UHGV virus genome: UHGV-0090257
Length of the DNA stretch: 36,853 nt
Strand: one strand, 5' to 3'
From: a virus
A program made the translations under genes and the position numbers. Position 1 is the stretch's first letter. Every line of letters starts with the position of its first letter. Shown here piece by piece: positions 26,860 through 36,853 of the stretch. The notes below the pieces were generated by a model that searched no databases, was not told the origin of the DNA, and saw only the letters and a program-made list of their open reading frames with translations.

Positions 26860-27054
26860 CTATTTGTTTTTCTTGTTGCTTGGGAAAGGACGAACTTCCT
26901 CTCCAATCACACTGCCATCAGGCTTTACCGTAACCATGATGTTACGGCCTGCCAGAATGGCCTTGCTGATAGCGCACTGGATTACACCAAAGTCACTGGC
27001 TGCTTTAGCCTGTCCATGGATTTTGGCGTAATCGGCAAGTGTCATTCGAATCAT
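26860..27054 (-). CDS. cro: Cro repressor
   Basis: About 64 aa from the ATG at 27054; ...[35 protein letters not shown]...[16 protein letters not shown] aligns with lambda Cro; SD GGAGA upstream. Confidence 0.85.
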
Positions 27055-27083
27055 ATGCACTCTCCGTTATTAACCATGAACAA

Positions 27084-27154
27084 AGAATACTACAGGTATT
27101 CAAAGCAATCAATACTCAGGGTATTTTTAGTTTAAGTACTTTAGCTATTAGAAT
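27084..27154. promoter_or_regulatory. Right operator region with divergent pR and pRM
   Basis: Operator-like dyads AATACTACAGGTATT (27086..27100), AATACTCAGGGTATT (27111..27125) and weaker AGTACTTTAGCTATT (27135..27149); pR -10 TATTCT and -35 TTGATT on the minus strand; candidate pRM -10 TAGAAT at 27149..27154 about 7 nt before the cI ATG. Confidence 0.6.
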
Positions 27155-27160
27155 TAAGCT

Positions 27161-27877
27161 ATGGAAAATAAAAAATCACTGACGACAGAACAGCTCGAAG
27201 ACGCTAAGCGGCTTAAGGCTTTGTATGAGTCAAAAAAGAAAGAATTGGGAATAACCCAATACTCAATCGCTGATGAACTGGGTATCACCCAAGGAGCGGT
27301 AGGGCATTATCTTAATGGCAGAAACGCGCTAAACGTTGAGGTTGCATCTGGTTTTGCACGACTGTTGCAAGTCTCAATTGCTGATTTTAGCCAGTCAATT
27401 GCTGCCAAGGTTGCAGAACAGGCAGAAAGCCTTAAGAGCGATGCCAACGTAAGGTATGCAGGGGAATACAGAGCAGGAAAGAGGTATCCGGTGTTAAGCA
27501 GTATCCAGGCTGGCTCGTGGTGTGAAGCATGCGAACCATACACCATTAAAGACATAGATGTTTGGCTTGAGTCTGACGCGCATATTCAAGGTAATGCGTT
27601 CTGGCTTAAAGTGGAAGGTGATTCAATGACGGCACCGGTTGGGTTAAGCATTCCAGAGGGAACATTCGTTCTTTTCGATACCGGAAGGGAGGCGATCAAC
27701 GGCAGCTTGGTCATAGCAAAACTTTCTGACTCTAACGAAGCAACATTCAAGAAGCTGATAATCGACGGCGGAAATAAATACCTCAAGGGACTTAATCCTG
27801 CATGGCCTCTCGTGCCAATCAATGGAAACTGCAAGATTATAGGCGTTGCAATTGAGACAAAACTAAGGCTGGTTTGA
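27161..27877 (+). CDS. cI: CI-type prophage repressor (HTH plus S24 LexA-like autopeptidase domain)
   Basis: 238 aa; N-terminal HTH (ITQYSIADELGITQGAVGHYLNG), A-G cleavage site in QAGSW, catalytic Ser in GDSM and Lys in FKKL. Confidence 0.9.
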   Translation: MENKKSLTTEQLEDAKRLKALYESKKKELGITQYSIADELGITQGAVGHYLNGRNALNVEVASGFARLLQVSIADFSQSIAAKVAEQAESLKSDANVRYAGEYRAGKRYPVLSSIQAGSWCEACEPYTIKDIDVWLESDAHIQGNAFWLKVEGDSMTAPVGLSIPEGTFVLFDTGREAINGSLVIAKLSDSNEATFKKLIIDGGNKYLKGLNPAWPLVPINGNCKIIGVAIETKLRLV

Positions 27878-27894
27878 TCACGCAAGGGGCGATT

Positions 27895-28263
27895 ATGGTT
27901 GGAACAGCTATAGCAAGCTTTTTTGGGATGTTGGCAATCTCGACAATTTACGGCTTAGCGCATGCTTTTATTGCGAAATCTCTATCAGAAAAAATAAGCC
28001 AGGCTTGGGCGCATAGATTAGCTCGTTTCATGATTCTAGTGATCATAGCAATACAAGGGATATCTGCATTTATCCTCTATGGTTCAAGCTTATACCTGTT
28101 GTATCAAGGCGCGACATTTACGCCTTACACCAGTGATTACGGAACGCTATACGATGGTAGTGAAGACATCTCTATGGCTTGGATCGTCTTTGGTTTATCT
28201 ATGGCCGTGTCTGTTGTAGCAGACATCATTAAGGTAATTCTCGTCTTAACCTTCGCTGACTAA
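27895..28263 (+). CDS. Small polytopic membrane protein co-oriented with cI (lysogenic accessory gene in the rex slot)
   Basis: About 122 aa from the ATG at 27895 (SD AAGGGG); at least three hydrophobic helices; starts 18 nt after the cI stop and ends before OL. Confidence 0.6.
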   Translation: MVGTAIASFFGMLAISTIYGLAHAFIAKSLSEKISQAWAHRLARFMILVIIAIQGISAFILYGSSLYLLYQGATFTPYTSDYGTLYDGSEDISMAWIVFGLSMAVSVVADIIKVILVLTFAD

Positions 28264-28350
28264 ACCATAATCCCGGCAGCAATAGCTATCGGGATCCACT
28301 TCACATATCCCGCATAAAAAACACTGAACAAGCAGACACCGAAAAAAATA

Positions 28351-28437
28351 AATATCCTTTGTATTCATTTGCTTATCATTATTTCACCAAAAATAAATAC
28401 CTTGGGTATTTACACAATAAAATACCTACAGTATTCT
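28351..28437. promoter_or_regulatory. Left operator region with pL
   Basis: Dyads AATATCCTTTGTATT (28351..28365), AATACCTTGGGTATT (28396..28410) and AATACCTACAGTATT (28421..28435), the same family as OR; pL -35 TTTACA (28409..28414) and -10 TATTCT (28432..28437) pointing toward N. Confidence 0.6.
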
Positions 28438-28482
28438 TTAGCCATCAGCAGGACGCTGGAAGCCAAACGGAACAGATTGGCA

Positions 28483-28524
28483 GGCTCTTTAACATTGATG
28501 GGATTGTCCCGCCGAAATGCGGGA
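28483..28524 (+). promoter_or_regulatory. nutL (boxA plus boxB)
   Basis: boxA GGCTCTTTAACA followed 12 nt later by hairpin TCCCGC-CGAAAT-GCGGGA, the same boxB core as nutR. Confidence 0.7.
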
Positions 28525-28838
28525 ACCAAAGAGTAGTTGGCTTTGGGGTGACGTGAAGTGCAGCTGCACGACGGCAACCGGAAGATAAGCACCCGGCGCG
28601 TCACCGCCAAAGTCAATTCCATAGGCGTTATGCAGCCGCCACCATATTCAAGAAAGCTGCACAAGAGGTAGGAGGATTTATGTGAATACTTACATTCAAT
28701 TGAGAGATTAATTAAATAGAACTGATCGAGCAGAGTCCATGAAGGCTCATAAATGCTCTTCCATCCCCGTCTAATTGGCGGGGAAGGAAACCACTTTGTA
28801 ATAAAAAAAATTCCAAAGTTGTTTCATCGGAGGTCAAC

Positions 28839-29138
28839 ATGACAGTAGTCATTACATATCTGGCTGACGATAACGCCAGAAATCGCCGCAGAGCACGCAG
28901 ACAGGCTCAACGTGAACAGGCAATGCAAGAGCAGCGACTGGCGCGAAAAATTGCGCTAAAGCTCTCTGGTTGCGTCAGAGCAGATAAAGCAGCATCACTC
29001 GGAAGCCTTCGCAGCAAGAAGGCAGAAGAAGTCGAGCGTAAACAGAACCGTATTTACTACCGCAAGCCCCGCAGTGAAATGGGTGTGACATGTGTTGGTC
29101 GCCAGAAAATGAAATTAGGCAGCAAACCACTTATTTGA
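28839..29138 (+). CDS. N: N-type transcription antiterminator
   Basis: 99 aa; N-terminal arginine-rich motif NARNRRRARRQAQREQA; first gene downstream of pL/nutL; SD GGAGGT. Confidence 0.8.
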   Translation: MTVVITYLADDNARNRRRARRQAQREQAMQEQRLARKIALKLSGCVRADKAASLGSLRSKKAEEVERKQNRIYYRKPRSEMGVTCVGRQKMKLGSKPLI

Positions 29139-29146
29139 GGTGATAT

Positions 29147-29338
29147 ATGGAACGTAAATTTGAAATTTGGTTGGATTCCGGCGCAAACATTCATTCTTGC
29201 AAAAAGACAGTTGTAACACTCGGTGATCTTGGCTTATCCGAGAATGAGTGGGATGAAATGGATCGGGACGAAAAAGACGAAAACATGCGTGATGTAGCAT
29301 TTGAAACGCTTGATTGGGGATGGAAGGAAATTAAGTGA
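29147..29338 (+). CDS. Hypothetical protein (N-proximal accessory ORF)
   Basis: 63 aa acidic ORF in an AT-rich segment immediately after N. Confidence 0.5.
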   Translation: MERKFEIWLDSGANIHSCKKTVVTLGDLGLSENEWDEMDRDEKDENMRDVAFETLDWGWKEIK

Positions 29339-29386
29339 TGGCCGCATAGTCGGCCTTTATTTTTGGCATAAACAACAGAGGCCAAC

Positions 29387-29683
29387 ATGGAATTTAAAGG
29401 TACTGAAGGTAAGTGGGAAATAATGATGGATGGCGATGAGATTAAAATCATCCAGGCAGACTCACTTGAAAATGGCGCAGGCTGGCGTTCGTATATTGCA
29501 ATCTGTGAGGAAGTTCAATGCATTGAAGATGCCAATCTAATAGCGGCAGCACCTGACCTTCTCGAAGCACTTCAGTTATTACTTAAGCAAACCAAAAATA
29601 GAACAACGACAACATATCCAGAATGGTATGGAGCTGTTAATAAAGGTCTTGTGGCAATCAGAAAAGCTCTTGGGGAAGAATGA
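29387..29683 (+). CDS. Hypothetical protein (N-proximal accessory ORF)
   Basis: 98 aa ORF, AT-rich codon usage, no family recognised. Confidence 0.5.
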   Translation: MEFKGTEGKWEIMMDGDEIKIIQADSLENGAGWRSYIAICEEVQCIEDANLIAAAPDLLEALQLLLKQTKNRTTTTYPEWYGAVNKGLVAIRKALGEE

Positions 29684-29841
29684 TGAATAAGAAATACATT
29701 GTTGAAGTTATAGAGCGAGAAACAAAAGAAGTAATTAAACATTTCGAATTTGATAATTATAGAAAAGCTGATCGCGTAGAAGAAGGATTGTTGCGACAAA
29801 GTAATCTCGAAAAATTTGATGTTGTCATGCGATGCGAATAA
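29680..29841 (+). CDS. Small hypothetical protein
   Basis: 53 aa ORF read by hand (MMNKKYIVEVIERETKEVIKHFEFDNYRKADRVEEGLLRQSNLEKFDVVMRCE), ATGA overlap with the previous ORF, very AT-rich. Confidence 0.4.
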   Translation: MMNKKYIVEVIERETKEVIKHFEFDNYRKADRVEEGLLRQSNLEKFDVVMRCE

Positions 29842-29934
29842 GCACCTATAGCAGATTTACGAGTCTGCTATGTGAGCAATGTCGCTCGTAACTAAACAGG
29901 AGCCGACTTGTTCTGATTATTGGAAATCTTCTTT

Positions 29935-29961
29935 GCCCTCCAGTGTGAGGGCGATTTTTTA
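29935..29961 (+). terminator. Intrinsic terminator in the early-left operon (tL-like)
   Basis: GCCCTC-cagtgt-GAGGGC followed by GATTTTTTAT. Confidence 0.65.
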
Positions 29962-29980
29962 TCTATGAGGATATGAATAG

Positions 29981-30349
29981 ATGTCAAACATCAAAAAATA
30001 CATCATTGATTACGACTGGAAAGCATCAATAGAAATTGAAATCGATCATGACGTAATGACAGAGGAAAAACTTCACCAGATTAATAATTTCTGGTCAGAC
30101 TCTGAATACCGACTCAATAAACACGGCTCTGTATTAAATGCTGTATTAATCATGCTGGCGCAACATGCTCTGCTTGTAGCAATTTCAAGCGACTTAAATG
30201 CATATGGTGTTGTGTGTGAGTTCGACTGGAATGATGGAAATGGTCAGGAAGGATGGCCTCCAATGGATGGTAGCGAAGGAATAAGGATTACCGATATCGA
30301 TACATCAGGAATATTTGATTCAGATGATATGACTATCAAGGCCGCCTGA
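29981..30349 (+). CDS. Hypothetical protein
   Basis: 122 aa acidic ORF, followed by the hairpin GCCGC-ctgagt-GCGGC at 30341..30360. Confidence 0.55.
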   Translation: MSNIKKYIIDYDWKASIEIEIDHDVMTEEKLHQINNFWSDSEYRLNKHGSVLNAVLIMLAQHALLVAISSDLNAYGVVCEFDWNDGNGQEGWPPMDGSEGIRITDIDTSGIFDSDDMTIKAA

Positions 30350-30424
30350 GTGCGGCTTTACCGCATACCAATAACGCTTCATTCGAGGCGTTTTCGTTAT
30401 GCAATCAAATATAAGGAGTTACCC

Positions 30425-30559
30425 ATGATGCACTTTCAGCTCGCGGGTAGCGGCGTCATGTCCGCTTTCTACCCGCACGAATCTGAATTATCACGCCGAG
30501 TTAAACAATTAATCAGAGCAGCAAAGAAACAACTGGAGGCGTTATGCGCAATGAAATAG
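30425..30559 (+). CDS. cIII: CIII-like protease (FtsH) inhibitor
   Basis: 44 aa from the ATG at 30425 (SD AAGGAG); MMHFQLAGSGVMSAFYPHESELSRRVKQLIR resembles lambda CIII (MQYAIAGWPVAG..ESLLERITRKLR) in pattern and position. Confidence 0.6.
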   Translation: MMHFQLAGSGVMSAFYPHESELSRRVKQLIRAAKKQLEALCAMK

Positions 30560-30696
30560 CCATCAATCACCAGATGCTTCGTGCGGCACAAAACAAAGCA
30601 GTAATAGCCAGATTTATTGGTGATTCAAAAATGTGGCTTGAAGCAAATAAAGCGATGAAATCAGCTATCAACCTTCCGTGGTATCGCAGGAAATGA
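30544..30696 (+). CDS. Kil-like small protein
   Basis: 50 aa ORF read by hand; ...IARFIGDSKMWLEANKAMKSAI resembles the lambda Kil segment IATFIGDEKMFREAVDAYKK as remembered; lies immediately after cIII as in lambda. Confidence 0.45.
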   Translation: MRNEIAINHQMLRAAQNKAVIARFIGDSKMWLEANKAMKSAINLPWYRRK

Positions 30697-30800
30697 GTTT
30701 TACAGATAACTGGTCAGACGAAGAATTCATTCGTCAGATGAACAAAATGCTCAATCAGCACAAAGAACAGGAGAAAGATGATGATTCTGACTCTGAATGA
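30693..30800 (+). CDS. Very small acidic ORF
   Basis: 35 aa (MSFTDNWSDEEFIRQMNKMLNQHKEQEKDDDSDSE), overlaps both neighbouring ORFs; may not be expressed. Confidence 0.25.
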   Translation: MSFTDNWSDEEFIRQMNKMLNQHKEQEKDDDSDSE

Positions 30801-31089
30801 TAAGCGTGAAATATCGCAAATAATCGCAAGTTTTACTGATGAAGATTACGAACGAATCAACAGTGAAGTTGATCGCCTCTGCAAACGTTGCGACCCAATA
30901 AGCGAAATGCTTCGCTCATATAAACCAGATGAACACACTAAGGACGCTATCGACTGGCTGGAAGATGATGACTGTAACTATCAGGAAAAAGCCGCTGAAT
31001 GGTTCTGGGATGCAATAACCGAAAGAGTTAAGGCTGAATATGCCTTCGCAATATTCAAACGCAGACATATTTATGGAGAAGCTGCATGA
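30778..31089 (+). CDS. Hypothetical protein upstream of recT (Gam/Abc slot)
   Basis: 103 aa ORF, stop overlapping the recT start. Confidence 0.5.
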   Translation: MMILTLNDKREISQIIASFTDEDYERINSEVDRLCKRCDPISEMLRSYKPDEHTKDAIDWLEDDDCNYQEKAAEWFWDAITERVKAEYAFAIFKRRHIYGEAA

Positions 31090-31988
31090 GCAATATCGTT
31101 GAATTCGTTAAACAGCAAGAGCAGTTATTCTGCGGAGCATTGACTGAACAGACGGTGACATGGGCTAAGGAAAGCCAGTTTGCAATTCAGTATTTCCAGA
31201 AAAACGATTACCTGGCTAAAACAGCACTGGCAAATCCAACCAGCGCACAGAACGCCATTATCAATGTTGCGGCGATCGGCATCACCTTAAACCCGGCCAG
31301 CAAACTGGCTTATCTGGTTCCTCGCGAAGGCATGGTGTGCCTTGATATCAGTTACATGGGATTACTTCATCTTGCGCAATCGACAGGATCAATTAAGTGG
31401 GGGCAATGCAAACTGGTGTACTCAAACGACACCTATGAATCAAATGGCCTTGATTCAGCACCAACCCACAAATACAACGCATTTGGTGAGCGAGGCTCTA
31501 TTGTTGGAGGTTATTGCACGGTTAAAACAGCAGATGGTGACTACCTGACTGAAGAAATGAGTCTGGCAGAAATTAAAGCAGTTGAAGCAACGAGCAAGGC
31601 AAAGAATGGACCGTGGAAAACATTCTGGGAAGAGATGGCGCGTAAAACAATAGTTAAACGCGCCAGCAAATACTGGCCTAAAGCCCAGCGACTGGATAAT
31701 GCCATTCACCTGCTTAACGAAGATGAAGGTATGCATCAGGAACCAGTTATGCCGCACAAATCAGAGGAAGATATCCGCGAAGATGAACGGAAACGCCAGC
31801 AGGAAATAATGGATAAAGCACAACTTCTTTGCGATGAAATGGCTCAGGCAGAAAACATGGACGATTTGAAGCGATATTTTGCAGAAGCATATCGCCTGAC
31901 ATCTGGAATGAAATTGCAGCAGAACGTACAAGCCATTTACATAGAATGCAAAGCGAAACTGGAGGTTGCCAGTGAGCAAACTGTATGA
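31086..31988 (+). CDS. recT: RecT-family single-strand annealing protein
   Basis: 300 aa; NGPWKTFWEEMARKTIVKRASKYWP matches the conserved RecT core (NGPW..HWEEMAKKTA.RRL.KYLP) as remembered. Confidence 0.85.
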   Translation: MSNIVEFVKQQEQLFCGALTEQTVTWAKESQFAIQYFQKNDYLAKTALANPTSAQNAIINVAAIGITLNPASKLAYLVPREGMVCLDISYMGLLHLAQSTGSIKWGQCKLVYSNDTYESNGLDSAPTHKYNAFGERGSIVGGYCTVKTADGDYLTEEMSLAEIKAVEATSKAKNGPWKTFWEEMARKTIVKRASKYWPKAQRLDNAIHLLNEDEGMHQEPVMPHKSEEDIREDERKRQQEIMDKAQLLCDEMAQAENMDDLKRYFAEAYRLTSGMKLQQNVQAIYIECKAKLEVASEQTV

Positions 31989-32454
31989 AATTGCCAATGA
32001 ATACGCAAAATTGATGGATTCAGATTTAGAACCAGAGATGATTGCTGACACAATAGAAGGCATGGAAGGAGAATTTACCGATAAAATAGAGCAACTTCTT
32101 GCCATTATTAAAAATGAATCTGGTTATGCTGAACGCCTCAAGGAAGAGGCAAAGTCACTAAATGAGCGAGCCGCAGTAATTCAAAACAAGATTGACAGCA
32201 TTATGGCGTATATAGCGTCATCGCTTGAAATGGTTGGCAAGAAAAAGATTCGAGCAGGTATTCACCAGGTAACAATCCGCAAACCGTCAGAAACTGTAGA
32301 AATCATCGACTCAAGCGCCCTTCCTCCTGAATACGTTGAGTTTGAAACGACAATTAAAGCCGACAAACTGGCAATCAAACACCAACTAAAAGCAGGAATA
32401 AATATCCCCGGCGCTCAACTCAAAGTTGGGAAACCTTCACTTCTTATCAAATAA
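31972..32454 (+). CDS. Gp157-like protein commonly paired with phage recombinases
   Basis: About 160 aa; probable GTG start at 31972 with SD GGAGG; N-terminal SKLYEIANEYAKLMD pattern; the assignment is from memory and tentative. Confidence 0.5.
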   Translation: MSKLYEIANEYAKLMDSDLEPEMIADTIEGMEGEFTDKIEQLLAIIKNESGYAERLKEEAKSLNERAAVIQNKIDSIMAYIASSLEMVGKKKIRAGIHQVTIRKPSETVEIIDSSALPPEYVEFETTIKADKLAIKHQLKAGINIPGAQLKVGKPSLLIK

Positions 32455-32465
32455 CGGTATCGCCT

Positions 32466-32780
32466 ATGAAAAAGACTCCATGGGAGAAATGGGAGGTCGA
32501 TTTCTTGCGCGAAGTGGCGGCGACAATGCCAGTTGAAGTTATCGCTGAAAAACTGGAAAGGACTGAAAAAGCAGTAATGGCGAAAGCAACAAGGATTGGA
32601 GCTGACATTGTTAGCCGACTTCGTGGAAGACGCTGGACAAGAGCCGAAGTATCACTTTTCGGTAAGTTCTCCGCAGAAGAAATAGCAATTGCAACCTGCC
32701 GCTCAATTTATTCAGTAAGAGCTATGCGATACAAGCTAAAAAAACTCGATGAAGAAAGAGCAGGCATACGAATAAATTAA
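32466..32780 (+). CDS. Hypothetical protein
   Basis: 104 aa basic ORF. Confidence 0.5.
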   Translation: MKKTPWEKWEVDFLREVAATMPVEVIAEKLERTEKAVMAKATRIGADIVSRLRGRRWTRAEVSLFGKFSAEEIAIATCRSIYSVRAMRYKLKKLDEERAGIRIN

Positions 32781-32796
32781 CATGGAGTAATTAACA

Positions 32797-33078
32797 ATGA
32801 AGCTAAACATCGACCTCGGAAAATACGTTATTACCGGAACTAAACACGATCTGATTCTTAGCGAAAGAGGAATTATCAAAGAAGGTGAGAATGCAGGGAA
32901 AGAAACACTAAGCCGTATCGGTTATTACAGCAAGTTTGAGCATCTGGTCAAAGAGTTATGCAACCGTGAAATCCTGTTATCTCAGGCGCAGACGCTACAG
33001 GATATTCAGCAGCATATCGAGACTTTAGGTGTATCACTTAGCATGGCTGTTGACCAGTTCATGGAGAGTAAATCATGA
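32797..33078 (+). CDS. Hypothetical protein
   Basis: 93 aa ORF. Confidence 0.5.
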
Positions 33079-33239
33079 GAGGACTTGCATACAATCCCGG
33101 CATTCTTCCGGCAGAAATGATTATTCGCCAACGCGTAAAGCCAATGCCATCGAGAGAGGAATTGCTTAAGAGAAATTCTTTTCCATCAGTGAATCAAAAC
33201 AAATATCTGAATGCGATGTTGCGGAGTGGGAAGAAATGA
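33075..33239 (+). CDS. Small hypothetical protein
   Basis: 54 aa ORF read by hand ([54 protein letters not shown]), ATGA overlaps at both ends. Confidence 0.35.
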
Positions 33240-33712
33240 AACAAATGTCACTAATTGAGATGGATGGATTTCTGAAAGGTAAATGCATCCCAAGTGATTT
33301 AAAGGTTAACGAAACAAACGCTGAATATCTGGTGCGTAAGTTCGGTGAGCTTGAATCAAAACTGGAAACGGCGTTGCGGGAGTGTCGTTCTGCTGGAATC
33401 ACGATTGATAACCTTGAGGCTAAATGCGCGAAGATGGCTGCAGAAAATACCTCGCTTAAGCAATCTGAGAAGGAATTTAATGACTTTTGTCGTGAGGAGT
33501 TTAGCGAATGGGAAGATGATGTTACTGAAACCACAGCCACCGATGCTTTCCTGGCTGAAGTACGGGCGCAGGGCGTGGATATGGCTCGTAACGCGATGAT
33601 TGATTTTGTCGATGGTGAAGTTGGGCCAAACAAGAACGTTCCGGGGCTGATTAGAGGCGCAGAGATATGCGTAAGTATTGCTGAACAGCTTCGCAAAGGA
33701 GGCAACCAGTGA
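33236..33712 (+). CDS. Hypothetical protein
   Basis: 158 aa acidic ORF with coiled-coil character. Confidence 0.55.
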
Positions 33713-33942
33713 CTGTATGTCTTATTGATAAACGTCGACGTGGACAACAAATACCATCTGTTGAAATGCCGAATCACACATGGTTTTGCGTACTTGATAT
33801 CGATGGTATGGATACGTTGATCGACACTCGTCATTACTGCGATACCGCAACAGCTACTCCTGCAAAAGCAAAGAAAATGGCTGCTCTGATAGAAAACTGG
33901 ACTCCACCTGATGGTTGGTGCAATGGGAATGATCGAGATTAG
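33709..33942 (+). CDS. Hypothetical protein
   Basis: 77 aa ORF, overlaps the previous stop. Confidence 0.5.
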   Translation: MTVCLIDKRRRGQQIPSVEMPNHTWFCVLDIDGMDTLIDTRHYCDTATATPAKAKKMAALIENWTPPDGWCNGNDRD

Positions 33943-34009
33943 CACGAAAAAATGAAGGGCTATATCTGCGATTTTTTACGTAAATGCAACGGCTTCAGGG
34001 TGATGTGAC

Positions 34010-34693
34010 ATGAGCAAGATTGACTATCAGGCACTGCGTGAAAAGGCAGAGAAAGCAACGTGTGGTGTGTGGTCGCTCGAATATGGAGAGGGCCGATTTG
34101 ATGGTGATGATGCACTAATTCATCGCGAGGCTGCTGGGTATATTCCCATTTGCAGAATTGAAGGAGCGCATCCAGAAAGCGGTTTCGATGAAGATTTCCA
34201 AATGGAACAGCAGGCCAATGCTGAATTCATCGCCGCAGCCAGTCCAGCTACCGTGCTGGCGCTGCTGGATGAACGGGAAAGAAACCAGCAATACATCAAA
34301 CGCCGCGACCAGGAGAACGAGGATATTGCGCTAACAGTAGGGAAACTGCGTGTTGAGCTTGAAACAGCAAAATCAAAACTCAACGAGCAGCGTGAGTATT
34401 ACGAAGGTGTTATCTCGGATGGGAGTAAGCGTATTGCTAAACTGGAAAGCAACGAAGTCCGTGAAAACGGAAACCAGTTTCTTGTTGTTCGCCATCCTGG
34501 GAAGACTCCTGTTATCAAGCACTGCACTGGTGACCTGGAAGAGTTTCTGCGGCAGTTAATCGAACAAGACCCGTTAGTAACTATCGACATCATTACGCAT
34601 CGCTATTACGGGGTTGGAGGTCAATGGGTTCAGGATGCAGGTGAGTATCTGCATATGATGTCTGACGCTGGCATTCGCATCAAAGGAGAGTGA
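34010..34693 (+). CDS. Ead/Ea22-like protein
   Basis: 227 aa; the segment ANAEFIAAASPATVLALLDERERNQ is the motif remembered from the Ead/Ea22 family of lambdoid early-left proteins. Confidence 0.6.
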   Translation: MSKIDYQALREKAEKATCGVWSLEYGEGRFDGDDALIHREAAGYIPICRIEGAHPESGFDEDFQMEQQANAEFIAAASPATVLALLDERERNQQYIKRRDQENEDIALTVGKLRVELETAKSKLNEQREYYEGVISDGSKRIAKLESNEVRENGNQFLVVRHPGKTPVIKHCTGDLEEFLRQLIEQDPLVTIDIITHRYYGVGGQWVQDAGEYLHMMSDAGIRIKGE

Positions 34694-34884
34694 GATCGGT
34701 TTTGTAAAAGATAACGCTTGTGAAAATGCTGAATTTCGCGTCGTCTTCACAGCGATGCCAGAGTCTGTAGTGTCAGATGATGACCGTACTCAAACATCGG
34801 GTTGAGTATTATCTTACTGTTTCTTTACATAAACATTGCTGATACCGTTTAGCTGAAACGGCATACATTGCAAGGAGTTTATAA

Positions 34885-35166
34885 ATGCGTATCAATGAGT
34901 TAGAGTCTGAGCAAAAAGATTGGGCGTTATCAATGTTGTGCAGATCCGGTGTCTTGTCTCCATGCAGACATCACGAAGGTGTTTATGTAGATGAAGGTAT
35001 AGATATAGAGTCGGCATACAAATATTCCATGAAGGTTTATAAGTCTAATGAAGACAAATCCCCATTCTGCAATGTGCGAGAAATGACTGATACCGTGCAA
35101 AATTATTATCACGAGTACGGTGGAAACGATACTTGCCCTCTCTGTACAAAACATATAGATGATTAA
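34885..35166 (+). CDS. Hypothetical Cys/His-containing small protein
   Basis: 93 aa; SD AAGGAG; contains C...SPC.HH...C...CPLC, which could be a small zinc-binding fold. Confidence 0.5.
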   Translation: MRINELESEQKDWALSMLCRSGVLSPCRHHEGVYVDEGIDIESAYKYSMKVYKSNEDKSPFCNVREMTDTVQNYYHEYGGNDTCPLCTKHIDD

Positions 35167-35189
35167 ACCAAATATTACATAACAATCCT

Positions 35190-35248
35190 CGCACTCGCGG
35201 GGATTTCTTTTATCTGAACTCGCTACGGCGAGTTTTGTTTTATGGAGA
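35190..35248 (+). terminator. Tandem intrinsic terminators
   Basis: ATCCTCGC-actc-GCGGGGAT followed by TTCTTTTAT, then AACTCGC-tacg-GCGAGTT followed by TTGTTTTAT. Confidence 0.6.
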
Positions 35249-35254
35249 TGATAA

Positions 35255-35422
35255 ATGCACTTCCGAGTCACAGGTGAATGGAATGGAGAACCATTCAACA
35301 GAGTTATCGAAGCAGAGGACATCAACGACTGCTATGCCCACTGGATGCTGTGGGCGCAGATAGCACATGCAGACGTAACCAATATTCGAATTGAAGAACT
35401 GAAAGAACACCAAGCCGCCTGA
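35255..35422 (+). CDS. Small hypothetical protein between terminators
   Basis: 55 aa ORF read by hand (MHFRVTGEWNGEPFNRVIEAEDINDCYAHWMLWAQIAHADVTNIRIEELKEHQAA). Confidence 0.35.
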   Translation: MHFRVTGEWNGEPFNRVIEAEDINDCYAHWMLWAQIAHADVTNIRIEELKEHQAA

Positions 35423-35436
35423 TGGCGGTTTCTTTT
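35411..35436 (+). terminator. Intrinsic terminator upstream of xis
   Basis: GCCGCC-tgat-GGCGG followed by TTTCTTTTT. Confidence 0.55.
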
Positions 35437-35452
35437 TGCCTGGAGAATTAAG

Positions 35453-35644
35453 ATGACCGATACCAGCCTGATTCCTGAGAAAGAAGTGATGAACAAGCTC
35501 GGTGTTTCATCACGTCAGACAATCTGGAACTATACCAAACGGCACGGATTTCCGAAGCCAGTCAGAACCCACCCCAAATCATACCTTCGTGAAGCTGTTG
35601 AAGGGTGGATTCTTAACGGTGGCGTTAATCAGAAATGCTCCTGA
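35453..35644 (+). CDS. xis: AlpA-family excisionase / transcriptional regulator
   Basis: 63 aa; LGVSSRQTIWNYTKRHGFPKPV matches the AlpA-type HTH pattern (...STIYRLIKEGKFPKPV) as remembered; adjacent and convergent to the integrase. Confidence 0.7.
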   Translation: MTDTSLIPEKEVMNKLGVSSRQTIWNYTKRHGFPKPVRTHPKSYLREAVEGWILNGGVNQKCS

Positions 35645-36803
35645 TGTGCCAGAACAATTTATCAGCGTGAAGCTCATACGCTTTGCGCTGAGCCTCTATC
35701 CAATCGTGTTTATTGTATACGGACATTATCCCGCCAAGTTCATGACCGAGCATTCGCTCAGTAACATGAGGCTCGACATTCATCTCGGACAGACGTGTAA
35801 CAAGCGTTCTTCTGAAATCATGTGTTCGCCAGTAACCTATATCCATCCCTCCCCTTATTCTATTTACGAATCGGTTGGCTGCAGCGATGCTGATCGGTTT
35901 GTTTATGTCTTCTCCAGGGAAAAGAACATCATTGTACGTTGTCATGGCCTTATCGAGGAAAGGCTTAATTTGTTCGAAGATTGGACGGCGGATAACATTA
36001 CCCATCTTGCTATGCTCTTTCGGTACGGTCCATACGTTGTCCAGCAGGTCAAATTCTGTCTTTGTTGCCAGCCTAAGCTCTGAGAGCCTCGCCCCCCACA
36101 GCATAAGCATCTGATGAAGTAGCTTATTTGACGTAGACGCACGGCTTCTTTCAATAGCAAGCCAAATCTTAGCCAGTTCGTGATACGACAGTACCCGATC
36201 CCCTACCTCAGCGCGGGAGCCGAAGTCCCTTGGTTGGATGCTCATAATTGCGCAACTATCTATCAACTGACGCCGCATGCACCAACTTATTGCTGATCTT
36301 AGTTGACTTAGCACCTGCCTTGCTCGGCGTGGATTATCTCTTTCTTCTTCGGTAAGCAGGTCAACCCATTGCTTAACCGTGATAGAAGATGCCGGACGAT
36401 TAGGAAAGGCGTCATGCATGCGCTTCATAACCGTTGATCGGTAAAGTGCCTGGGTCTTTTCTCTGAGAGTTGTAGAGACGTAGTTGTCGAACCAGTAGTC
36501 GAGACACTGGGCGACCGTCATGGAGTTCTCCACCTTCTCTTCAAAATAGGTGCGTGGATCCGTTCCTGAGAAATAGAGCTTTCGCAAGTCAGCAGTGATC
36601 TGTCTGGCATCCTTCAAAGACAGGGATGGGTATCGACCAAGCCCAAGTCGATTAGGCTTGCCATGCCAGCGATAGCGGTACTGGAACTGGATGACCCCCT
36701 TCGGTGAAATTCGTACGCTGAGGCCATCGGCATCAGCCACTTCTTGTGGGCCCGAATATGGTTTACCATAAATAGTACGCAGTTTTGTGTCGCTTATAGC
36801 CAT
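35625..36803 (-). CDS. int: Tyrosine recombinase (P4-type phage integrase)
   Basis: 392 aa; N-terminal arm-binding type domain (GLSVRISPKGVIQFQYRYRWHGK), catalytic-region motifs HDFRRT and MLGH, and a tyrosine in SVYNKHD. Confidence 0.9.
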   Translation of the reverse strand: MAISDTKLRTIYGKPYSGPQEVADADGLSVRISPKGVIQFQYRYRWHGKPNRLGLGRYPSLSLKDARQITADLRKLYFSGTDPRTYFEEKVENSMTVAQCLDYWFDNYVSTTLREKTQALYRSTVMKRMHDAFPNRPASSITVKQWVDLLTEEERDNPRRARQVLSQLRSAISWCMRRQLIDSCAIMSIQPRDFGSRAEVGDRVLSYHELAKIWLAIERSRASTSNKLLHQMLMLWGARLSELRLATKTEFDLLDNVWTVPKEHSKMGNVIRRPIFEQIKPFLDKAMTTYNDVLFPGEDINKPISIAAANRFVNRIRGGMDIGYWRTHDFRRTLVTRLSEMNVEPHVTERMLGHELGGIMSVYNKHDWIEAQRKAYELHADKLFWHIRSISD

Positions 36804-36853
36804 AAATAATATTTGGTACGCTCAGAAATAATAGTTTGGTACACATCTGGTAC
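36804..36853. repeat. Direct repeats upstream of int (candidate integrase arm sites / att-proximal)
   Basis: AAATAATATTTGGTAC (36804..36819) and AAATAATAGTTTGGTAC (36826..36842), plus CTGGTAC at the window end. Confidence 0.4.

Follow-up and report, generated by a model that had tools for sequence, protein, structure and literature searches.

The early-left stretch of a lambda-like prophage very probably ends in a mosaic accessory segment that carries lambda Ea8.5 and a hybrid Ea22

Positions 32466-35166 of the virus genome UHGV-0090257 (the window, 36,853 nucleotides (nt) in all) hold a run of short open reading frames (ORFs), and the locus raises the question of what these genes are. The first-pass annotation, made from the sequence alone, placed them in an early-left operon, where host-takeover and anti-defence genes cluster, but could assign no family beyond a tentative Ead/Ea22 motif and a Cys/His pattern in a 93-residue protein. 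The analysis described here strongly favours the view that the stretch is the distal, non-essential accessory part of the pL operon of a mosaic lambdoid prophage (of HK140, HK97, P22 and lambda type), lying between the recombination genes (RecT, Gp157/MuGam-like) on one side and xis and int on the other. The statement that no family can be assigned does not survive database searches, as the products are lambda Ea8.5, Ea22, DUF5405, DUF2737, DUF7739 and members of PHROGs 323 and 614; each ORF matches a Pfam and/or PHROG family with E values of 1e-20 to 1e-77. All features described below are on the plus strand unless stated otherwise.

The Cys/His protein is encoded at 34885-35166 and is identical to lambda Ea8.5 at 92 of 93 residues, the sole substitution being S2R. 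It matches the Pfam family Lambda_ea8_5 (PF20735) at 1.1e-48 (164.3 bits against a cut-off of 27), with residues 8-93 covering the entire profile (1-90 of 90), and phrog_6325 at 5.6e-53 over its full length, while PDB sequence searches returned the solved nuclear magnetic resonance structures of its homologues 2M7A (8e-18) and 2M7B (6e-4). As a word-indexed homologue search gave close relatives only, an exhaustive HMMER search was used, which produced 75 matches, and conservation was assessed in an alignment of 45 full-length relatives displaying 27-61% identity. The only residues invariant across these relatives are M1, C27 (codon 34963-34965), H30 (34972-34974), C84 (35134-35136) and C87 (35143-35145), the last four of which align with Cys and His residues in 2M7A. 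This invariance, in combination with the homology to 2M7A and 2M7B, places Ea8.5 in a zinc-binding fold. The proposal of such a fold by the first-pass annotation thus stands, although C19, H29 and C62, which were also part of its Cys/His pattern, vary among the 45 relatives. Three publications (PMC8614690, PMC7093339, PMC4195576) describe the structures of the family as a hybrid homeodomain/zinc-finger fold, and the protein encoded here is likely to adopt the same homeodomain-like/zinc-finger architecture. C27, H30, C84 and C87 are the predicted zinc ligands, an assignment based on the conservation reported here and on secondary citations, and would together hold a single zinc ion.

In lambda, Ea8.5 represses the cII-dependent promoter paQ, and pI weakly; the gene is transcribed early, after infection and induction, and its expression in lysogens without induction has been reported (PMC7093339, PMC4195576). 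Yeast two-hybrid partners of the lambda protein are MinE, Ren and Q (PMC4195576, PMC7093339, PMC8614690, PMC10695390), and a CRISPR interference screen found both Ea8.5 and Ea22 to be non-essential (PMC10695390). The likeness to lambda extends to the position of the gene between ea22 and orf55/xis, the 191-nt spacer upstream of it, the hairpins downstream and the CHCC residues. By contrast, the flank differs, as an AlpA-type gene and a different integrase located at sbcB are found here in place of the xis and int of lambda itself. The spacer (34694-34884), which lies within a stretch shared with lambda, contains no ORF, no promoter-like site at the threshold of the scan and no marked fold (z-score -0.74), and Rfam gave no match at E<=0.1 over 27000-36853. 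The Shine-Dalgarno sequence that the first-pass annotation had noted after a gap of about 190 bp is present as AAGGAG at 34872-34877, 7 nt 5' of the ea8.5 ATG.

The tentative Ead/Ea22 motif proved to be a confident match. The 227-residue product of 34010-34693 aligns with Pfam Ead_Ea22 (PF13935) at 8.9e-39 (133.7 bits, cut-off 27), residues 2-146 spanning profile positions 1-139 of 139. Its alignment with lambda Ea22 contains 162 identities over 227 residues and a 45-residue gap; the two proteins are near-identical from residue 84 to the end, a part that contains the HRYYGVGG loop considered in PMC10834534. Over residues 147-227 the protein agrees with the solved C-terminal domain of lambda Ea22 (PDB 8DSX) at 80 of 81 positions (E=1.5e-50), showing that this domain is of the lambda type and not the variant found in Stx phages. 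Conversely, the N-terminal domain (approximately 83 residues) is of the HK140/Gally type and is 45 residues longer than that of lambda. The same division is apparent in the DNA, where nt 1-364 of ea22 are HK140-, Gally- and PS131-like and nt 244-684 are lambda-like. As the two halves match different phages, the allele is a recombinant with its junction inside the conserved coiled coil, a segment that is 75% identical to P22 EaD over 44 residues. The exact Ea22 sequence is rare, occurring on 15 contigs. In lambda, Ea22 forms a tetramer and promotes lysogeny; both the oligomeric state and the pro-lysogenic phenotype are known only through experimental work with lambda and Phi24B (PMC7093339, PMC10834534). 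An 87-residue antisense ORF in the coiled-coil segment of ea22 (34120-34383, minus strand) matches phrog_13760 at 6.4e-27; most likely this PHROG was built from spurious antisense gene calls.

The genes upstream of the stretch, on the same strand, encode a cI-type repressor (27161-27877), an N-like antiterminator (28839-29138), cIII, Kil (30544-30696), an Arf-like protein of 40 residues, RecT (31086-31988) and a Gp157/MuGam-like protein (31966-32454). Because these genes precede it, 32466-35166 belongs to the pL early-left operon of a lambdoid prophage, which, together with the AlpA-type xis and int downstream, upholds the operon assignment of the first-pass annotation. The ORFs themselves were found at the coordinates that the annotation had given and with the tight or overlapping junctions that it had described. 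From 32466 to 34693 these junctions are, in order, a 16-nt gap, two ATGA overlaps, one GTGA overlap and a 67-nt gap; the small genes are packed with these 4-nt overlaps or short gaps, and a Shine-Dalgarno sequence precedes each. None of the ORFs could be placed in an NCBIfam family at E<=0.01, and the long antisense ORFs at 33166-33945 (259 residues), 34930-35325 and 31761-32105 had no PHROG match.

Two further genes of the upstream region merit comment. The 40-residue ORF (30678-30800), located between kil and the 103-residue gene that precedes recT, has a match to phrog_2123 ('recombinase'), and its N-terminal motif, SDEEFI, resembles that of P22 Arf, the cofactor of Erf. Directly 3' of cI, and overlapping its final 4 nt, is a gene for a 129-residue predicted membrane protein (phrog_6534, 27874-28263). 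Lambda carries rexAB in the slot directly downstream of cI; as the positions correspond, the 129-residue protein is a candidate exclusion factor expressed in the lysogen.

Megablast analysis revealed that the stretch is a mosaic. The left part shares 96-99% identity with HK140, mEpX1, Gally and many Escherichia coli prophages, while 34253-35442 is 98.4% identical to lambda 29098-30287, and in the same search no single phage or E. coli record covered 80% of the 3.1 kb without a break. A sharp mosaic junction is located at approximately 33075. In six near-identical contigs the block 33075-35644 contains 0-14 mismatches, although it is preceded by either of two recombination modules, one comprising RecT, Gp157, the 104-residue protein and DUF5405, and the other Rad52, SSB, an Rv2179c-like exonuclease and Abc2. 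The contigs with Rad52 and Abc2 (L012, L015 and L016) are unrelated to the window upstream of 33075. In relatives the order of the genes is kept and single genes are swapped, dropped or inserted; DUF5405, for example, is absent from S56, Gally and SEN22, and PS131 has DUF7446. Each exact protein occurs on between 15 and more than 1000 public contigs. Compared with ten related loci the ratio of nonsynonymous to synonymous differences (pN/pS) is mostly 0.05-0.4, the counts per gene being small, and the relatives contain no internal stop codons, which points to ORFs that are conserved and under purifying selection.

The first gene of the stretch, encoding a 104-residue protein (32466-32780), closes the recombination module. 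The product matches phrog_11492 (4.6e-23) and phrog_323 (2.8e-20, profile positions 145-269), which is the PHROG of P22 Abc1 (1.3e-23, positions 93-190), the two matching stretches overlapping only in part. BLASTP gave no alignment between the 104-residue protein and Abc1, while hhalign produced a weak one (probability 24%, E=8e-4) in which the W-x2-E...GRS helix-turn-helix (HTH) repeats are aligned. Members of the family contain two W-x2-E...IA-x2-T-x-RS-x3-V-R repeats, or three in relatives of 152 residues, which also carry a Sigma70_r4_2 match. The AlphaFold2 (AF2) model (pLDDT 82.6) is built of two bundles, each of three helices, and its best Foldseek neighbours in the PDB are all DNA-binding proteins with two HTH motifs, although every one has E>0.1 and none is significant; a profile of the family reaches the NarL HTH domain at E=0.004. 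The gene displays a pN/pS of 0-0.15. The tandem-HTH protein is probably a DNA-binding accessory factor.

DUF5405 (32797-33078, 93 residues) is assigned by Pfam (PF17399, 25.5 bits against a cut-off of 21.6) and by phrog_154 (5e-31), and its gene has a pN/pS of 0.04-0.18. In the AF2 model (pLDDT 87.4, pTM 0.70) four β-strands are combined with a helical hairpin. The best Foldseek neighbour in the PDB has E=0.33, while a search of BFVD yielded 13 matches at E<1e-3, with TM-scores up to 0.83, all of which are DUF5405 or uncharacterized proteins save for one phiKT entry labelled 'replication initiation protein'. These relatives derive from temperate and virulent phages, including phages of Gram-positive hosts. 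The label 'replication initiation protein' is also borne by phrog_154 and was considered for this ORF. As the PDB contains no sequence match and no structural neighbour below E=0.33, the label is unsupported, and the protein is a 93-residue single domain encoded outside the replication module.

DUF2737 (33075-33239, 54 residues; Pfam 3.4e-32) is the counterpart of P22 orf56, to which it is 77% identical, and of HK97 gp38. The 158-residue coiled-coil protein (33236-33712) is a member of phrog_614 (1.2e-57) and is modular, as residues 3-42 are 73% identical to the N-terminus of K-12 YfdS, the central part shares 62% identity with P22 EaE across 58 residues, and the C-terminus is variable. In relatives, mosaic breakpoints fall inside the gene, whose exact sequence is found on 19 contigs. 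Although the 158-residue protein and Ea22 both match phrog_368, paralogy between them is undetectable. PDB sequence searches with DUF5405 and the 158-residue protein returned nothing, or coiled-coil noise only, and NCBIfam at E<=10 gave nothing relevant for the 158-residue protein or for a relative named 'YfdS family' by RefSeq. A literature search found no functional account of DUF2737, DUF5405 or DUF7739; any activity ascribed to the DUF proteins is an inference.

The DUF7739 gene (33709-33942, GTG start) encodes 77 residues. Alignment with ES9 and FDN-9 shows that the TGG codon for Trp78 has become TAG at 33940-33942. In relatives the gene comprises 99 codons and its TGA ends one base 5' of the ea22 ATG, so that the 67-nt gap before ea22 is the dead 3' end of the DUF7739 gene and not an intergenic region. 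This remnant (33943-34008, 22 codons and TGA), which abuts the start of ea22, is intact but untranslated. Accordingly the match to PF24881 (4.6e-17) covers only positions 1-77 of 98; with the stop at codon 78 the product lacks the full-length domain and is a member of the family by descent. The TAG is present in six of six near-identical E. coli contigs, regardless of the recombination module, and the 77-residue form is found on 21 contigs compared with hundreds for the 99-residue forms. The gene has been inactivated or shortened by the amber codon. The first-pass annotation had named pseudogenization in close relatives as evidence that would count against functional genes; a gene interrupted in this way was found only in the case of DUF7739, and here rather than in the relatives, the other ORFs being unaffected.

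Downstream of ea8.5, a terminator scan identified two tandem terminator-like hairpins with T-runs (35184-35235; fold z-score -3.6), which are inside the stretch that is 98.4% identical to lambda. They are followed by a homologue of lambda orf55 (lambdap35; 35255-35422, 55 residues, phrog_676 at 1.4e-39) that is 95% identical to the lambda gene at the DNA level. Another terminator-like hairpin (35412-35431) overlaps the end of orf55, and a rho-independent terminator is annotated at the equivalent site in HK140. The final gene of the operon, at 35453-35644, encodes an AlpA-type excisionase or regulator of 63 residues with a match to phrog_66 (1.9e-8) and a weaker one to Pfam Phage_AlpA (0.0032); its counterparts in HK140 and FDN-9 are annotated as AlpA family. 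The gene is convergent with that of a tyrosine integrase (35625-36803, minus strand), the 3' ends of the two overlapping by 20 nt (35625-35644), as is also the case in HK140 and FDN-9. In the near-identical contigs the integrase counterpart contains Arm-DNA-bind_3 and Phage_integrase domains, and the prophage adjoins sbcB.

These features suggest how the segment may work. In lambda, transcription of the pL operon begins at once upon infection or induction, and N enables the polymerase to read through internal terminators. By analogy, the operon from the N-like antiterminator (28839) to xis (35644) would be a set of N-antiterminated, translationally coupled accessory genes, and N-modified polymerase presumably reads through the hairpins at 35184-35235 and 35412-35431 toward xis. 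The genes would be non-essential cassettes, freely exchanged, whose products adjust the choice between lysis and lysogeny and the physiology of the host rather than build the virion. Ea22 and Ea8.5 would behave as their lambda copies do, Ea22 biasing the decision to lysogeny and Ea8.5 dampening paQ and pI, while the 158-residue protein and Ea22 may be coiled-coil scaffolds with swappable end domains. The gene identities, their conservation, the invariant Cys/His residues, the mosaicism and the nonsense mutation come from the present analysis, while the phenotypes of Ea22 and Ea8.5 are those of published work on lambda.

Several observations weigh against assigning the stretch to the ea/exo-xis type in this manner. 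Transcription and N read-through are extrapolated from lambda, and the description of these proteins as modulators of the lysis-lysogeny decision names a phenotype rather than a mechanism. Missing from the window are the lambda genes orf60a, orf63, orf61 and orf73, to which much of the published exo-xis phenotype belongs, so that the results obtained with lambda carry over only to Ea22 (its C-terminal two thirds), Ea8.5 and orf55. The N-terminal domain of Ea22 is itself unlike that of lambda, and the link between the 104-residue protein and Abc1 consists of a shared PHROG, partly overlapping profile stretches and a weak hhalign result, with no BLAST alignment. With these points taken into account, we hold with considerable confidence that the genes form the distal, ea/exo-xis-type accessory segment of a pL operon.

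An alternative view of the left end is that the 104-residue protein, possibly with DUF5405, is an Abc1-like cofactor of the recombination module that aids the recombinase or the anti-RecBCD function. Besides membership of the Abc1 PHROG, this is consistent with gene position. The 104-residue gene is the last of the Rec module not only here but also in seven relatives (HK140, Gally, FDN-9, JCKP02, S56, PS131 and the RecE-type SEN22), and P22 abc1 occupies the equivalent slot, before DUF2737/orf56; furthermore, the contigs with Rad52, SSB and Abc2 lack the 104-residue gene even though their downstream block is otherwise identical. P22 Abc1 is described as helping homologous recombination without being essential for it (PMC12315714). 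However, the co-occurring segments share 91-99% DNA identity, and the association may therefore come from nothing more than linkage by descent. Only weak homology to Abc1 is seen, and the absence of DUF5405 from S56, Gally and SEN22, which retain the 104-residue gene, argues against a partnership of the two. We consider a cofactor role possible but doubtful. It is also conceivable, although unlikely, that at least one of the small ORFs (the 104-residue protein, DUF5405, DUF2737, the 158-residue protein, DUF7739, orf55 or even Ea8.5) serves in anti-defence or in host takeover, by inhibiting a bacterial immune system or another target in the host. The genes directly follow one of anti-RecBCD type (Gp157/MuGam-like), and they are early, small, non-essential and turned over as cassettes. 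In JCKP02 (L008, 2809-3042) a Lar-family restriction-alleviation gene occupies the DUF7739 slot, and a Lar remnant follows ea22 in FDN-9 (L005, 4761-4862); as Lar genes or their remnants fill slots in close relatives, anti-restriction cassettes do use the locus. In addition, the spread of the DUF5405 fold across virulent and temperate phages of many hosts is expected of a general host-directed function. Against this, comparisons of sequence and structure revealed no likeness to any characterized inhibitor and PDB searches gave no informative neighbour, no literature link to anti-defence was found for these families or for the exo-xis region, and the phenotypes published for Ea22 and Ea8.5 relate to the lysis-lysogeny decision. 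PADLOC gave no match for eight ORFs at E<=0.01, a result that is uninformative on this issue as its models describe defence and not anti-defence.

Other proposals attract less support. That the 104-residue protein and DUF5405, whose genes travel with the recombination module, constitute a new class of recombination cofactor, or inhibit host defences that sense DNA ends, or else that Ea8.5, given its reported expression in lysogens, is a prophage regulator or defence factor acting on the DNA of the host or of superinfecting phages, seems to us improbable. The view that some of the ORFs are functionless, decaying remnants, and the run a relic rather than an expressed operon, draws on the premature TAG of DUF7739 here and in all the near-identical contigs, on the frameshift of DUF2737 in JCKP02 and the annotation of ea22 as partial in ETEC1730 and PS131, and on the dispensability of the genes (PMC10695390). 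Yet an intact reading frame is kept by six of the seven ORFs, for which pN/pS is far below 1 and ten relatives show no stop codon, the same genes are carried by plaque-forming phages such as HK140, mEpX1, Gally and lambda, and Shine-Dalgarno sequences and coupling overlaps are present at the starts, making decay a very unlikely explanation.

An accessory segment of the pL operon also accords with known systems. The ea region of P22 (abc1, orf56, eaE and eaD) and its equivalents in HK97 and HK140 contain the same families in the same order, namely an Abc1-type HTH protein, DUF2737, an EaE-like protein and an EaD/Ea22-like protein. P22 differs, however, in having Erf and Abc2 where RecT and Gp157 are found here and in the absence of DUF5405, DUF7739 and Ea8.5, and the similarity to EaE and EaD is limited to their central coiled-coil segments. 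The yfdQ-yfdR-yfdS-yfdT genes of the cryptic prophage CPS-53 of E. coli K-12 share with the stretch the N-terminus of YfdS and a slot just upstream of a TorI/xis-type gene; in contrast, the remainder of the 158-residue protein is unrelated to YfdS, and YfdR, to which the replication-inhibition phenotype of the CPS-53 yfd genes is mainly attributed (PMC4776307), is absent. YfdT was considered as a relative of DUF7739 and found to be unrelated.

The region is thus already known, being the ordinary accessory end of the early-left operon of an E. coli lambda-like prophage, and new details are confined to the hybrid make-up of the Ea22 allele, the amber codon that truncates DUF7739, the tandem-HTH character of the 104-residue protein and the finding that DUF5405 has no solved structural neighbour. 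It provides a textbook case of a mosaic, cassette-like accessory end in which two named genes have structures and published phenotypes. Its value is in part corrective, as a small zinc protein that might have seemed novel is in fact lambda Ea8.5 and the Ea22 call is solid, and what it leaves of interest are the molecular targets of Ea8.5, Ea22, DUF5405, DUF2737, DUF7739 and the Abc1-like HTH protein. These families are abundant in prophages of E. coli and Salmonella, including the Shiga-toxin phages, in which the balance between lysis and lysogeny controls toxin release.

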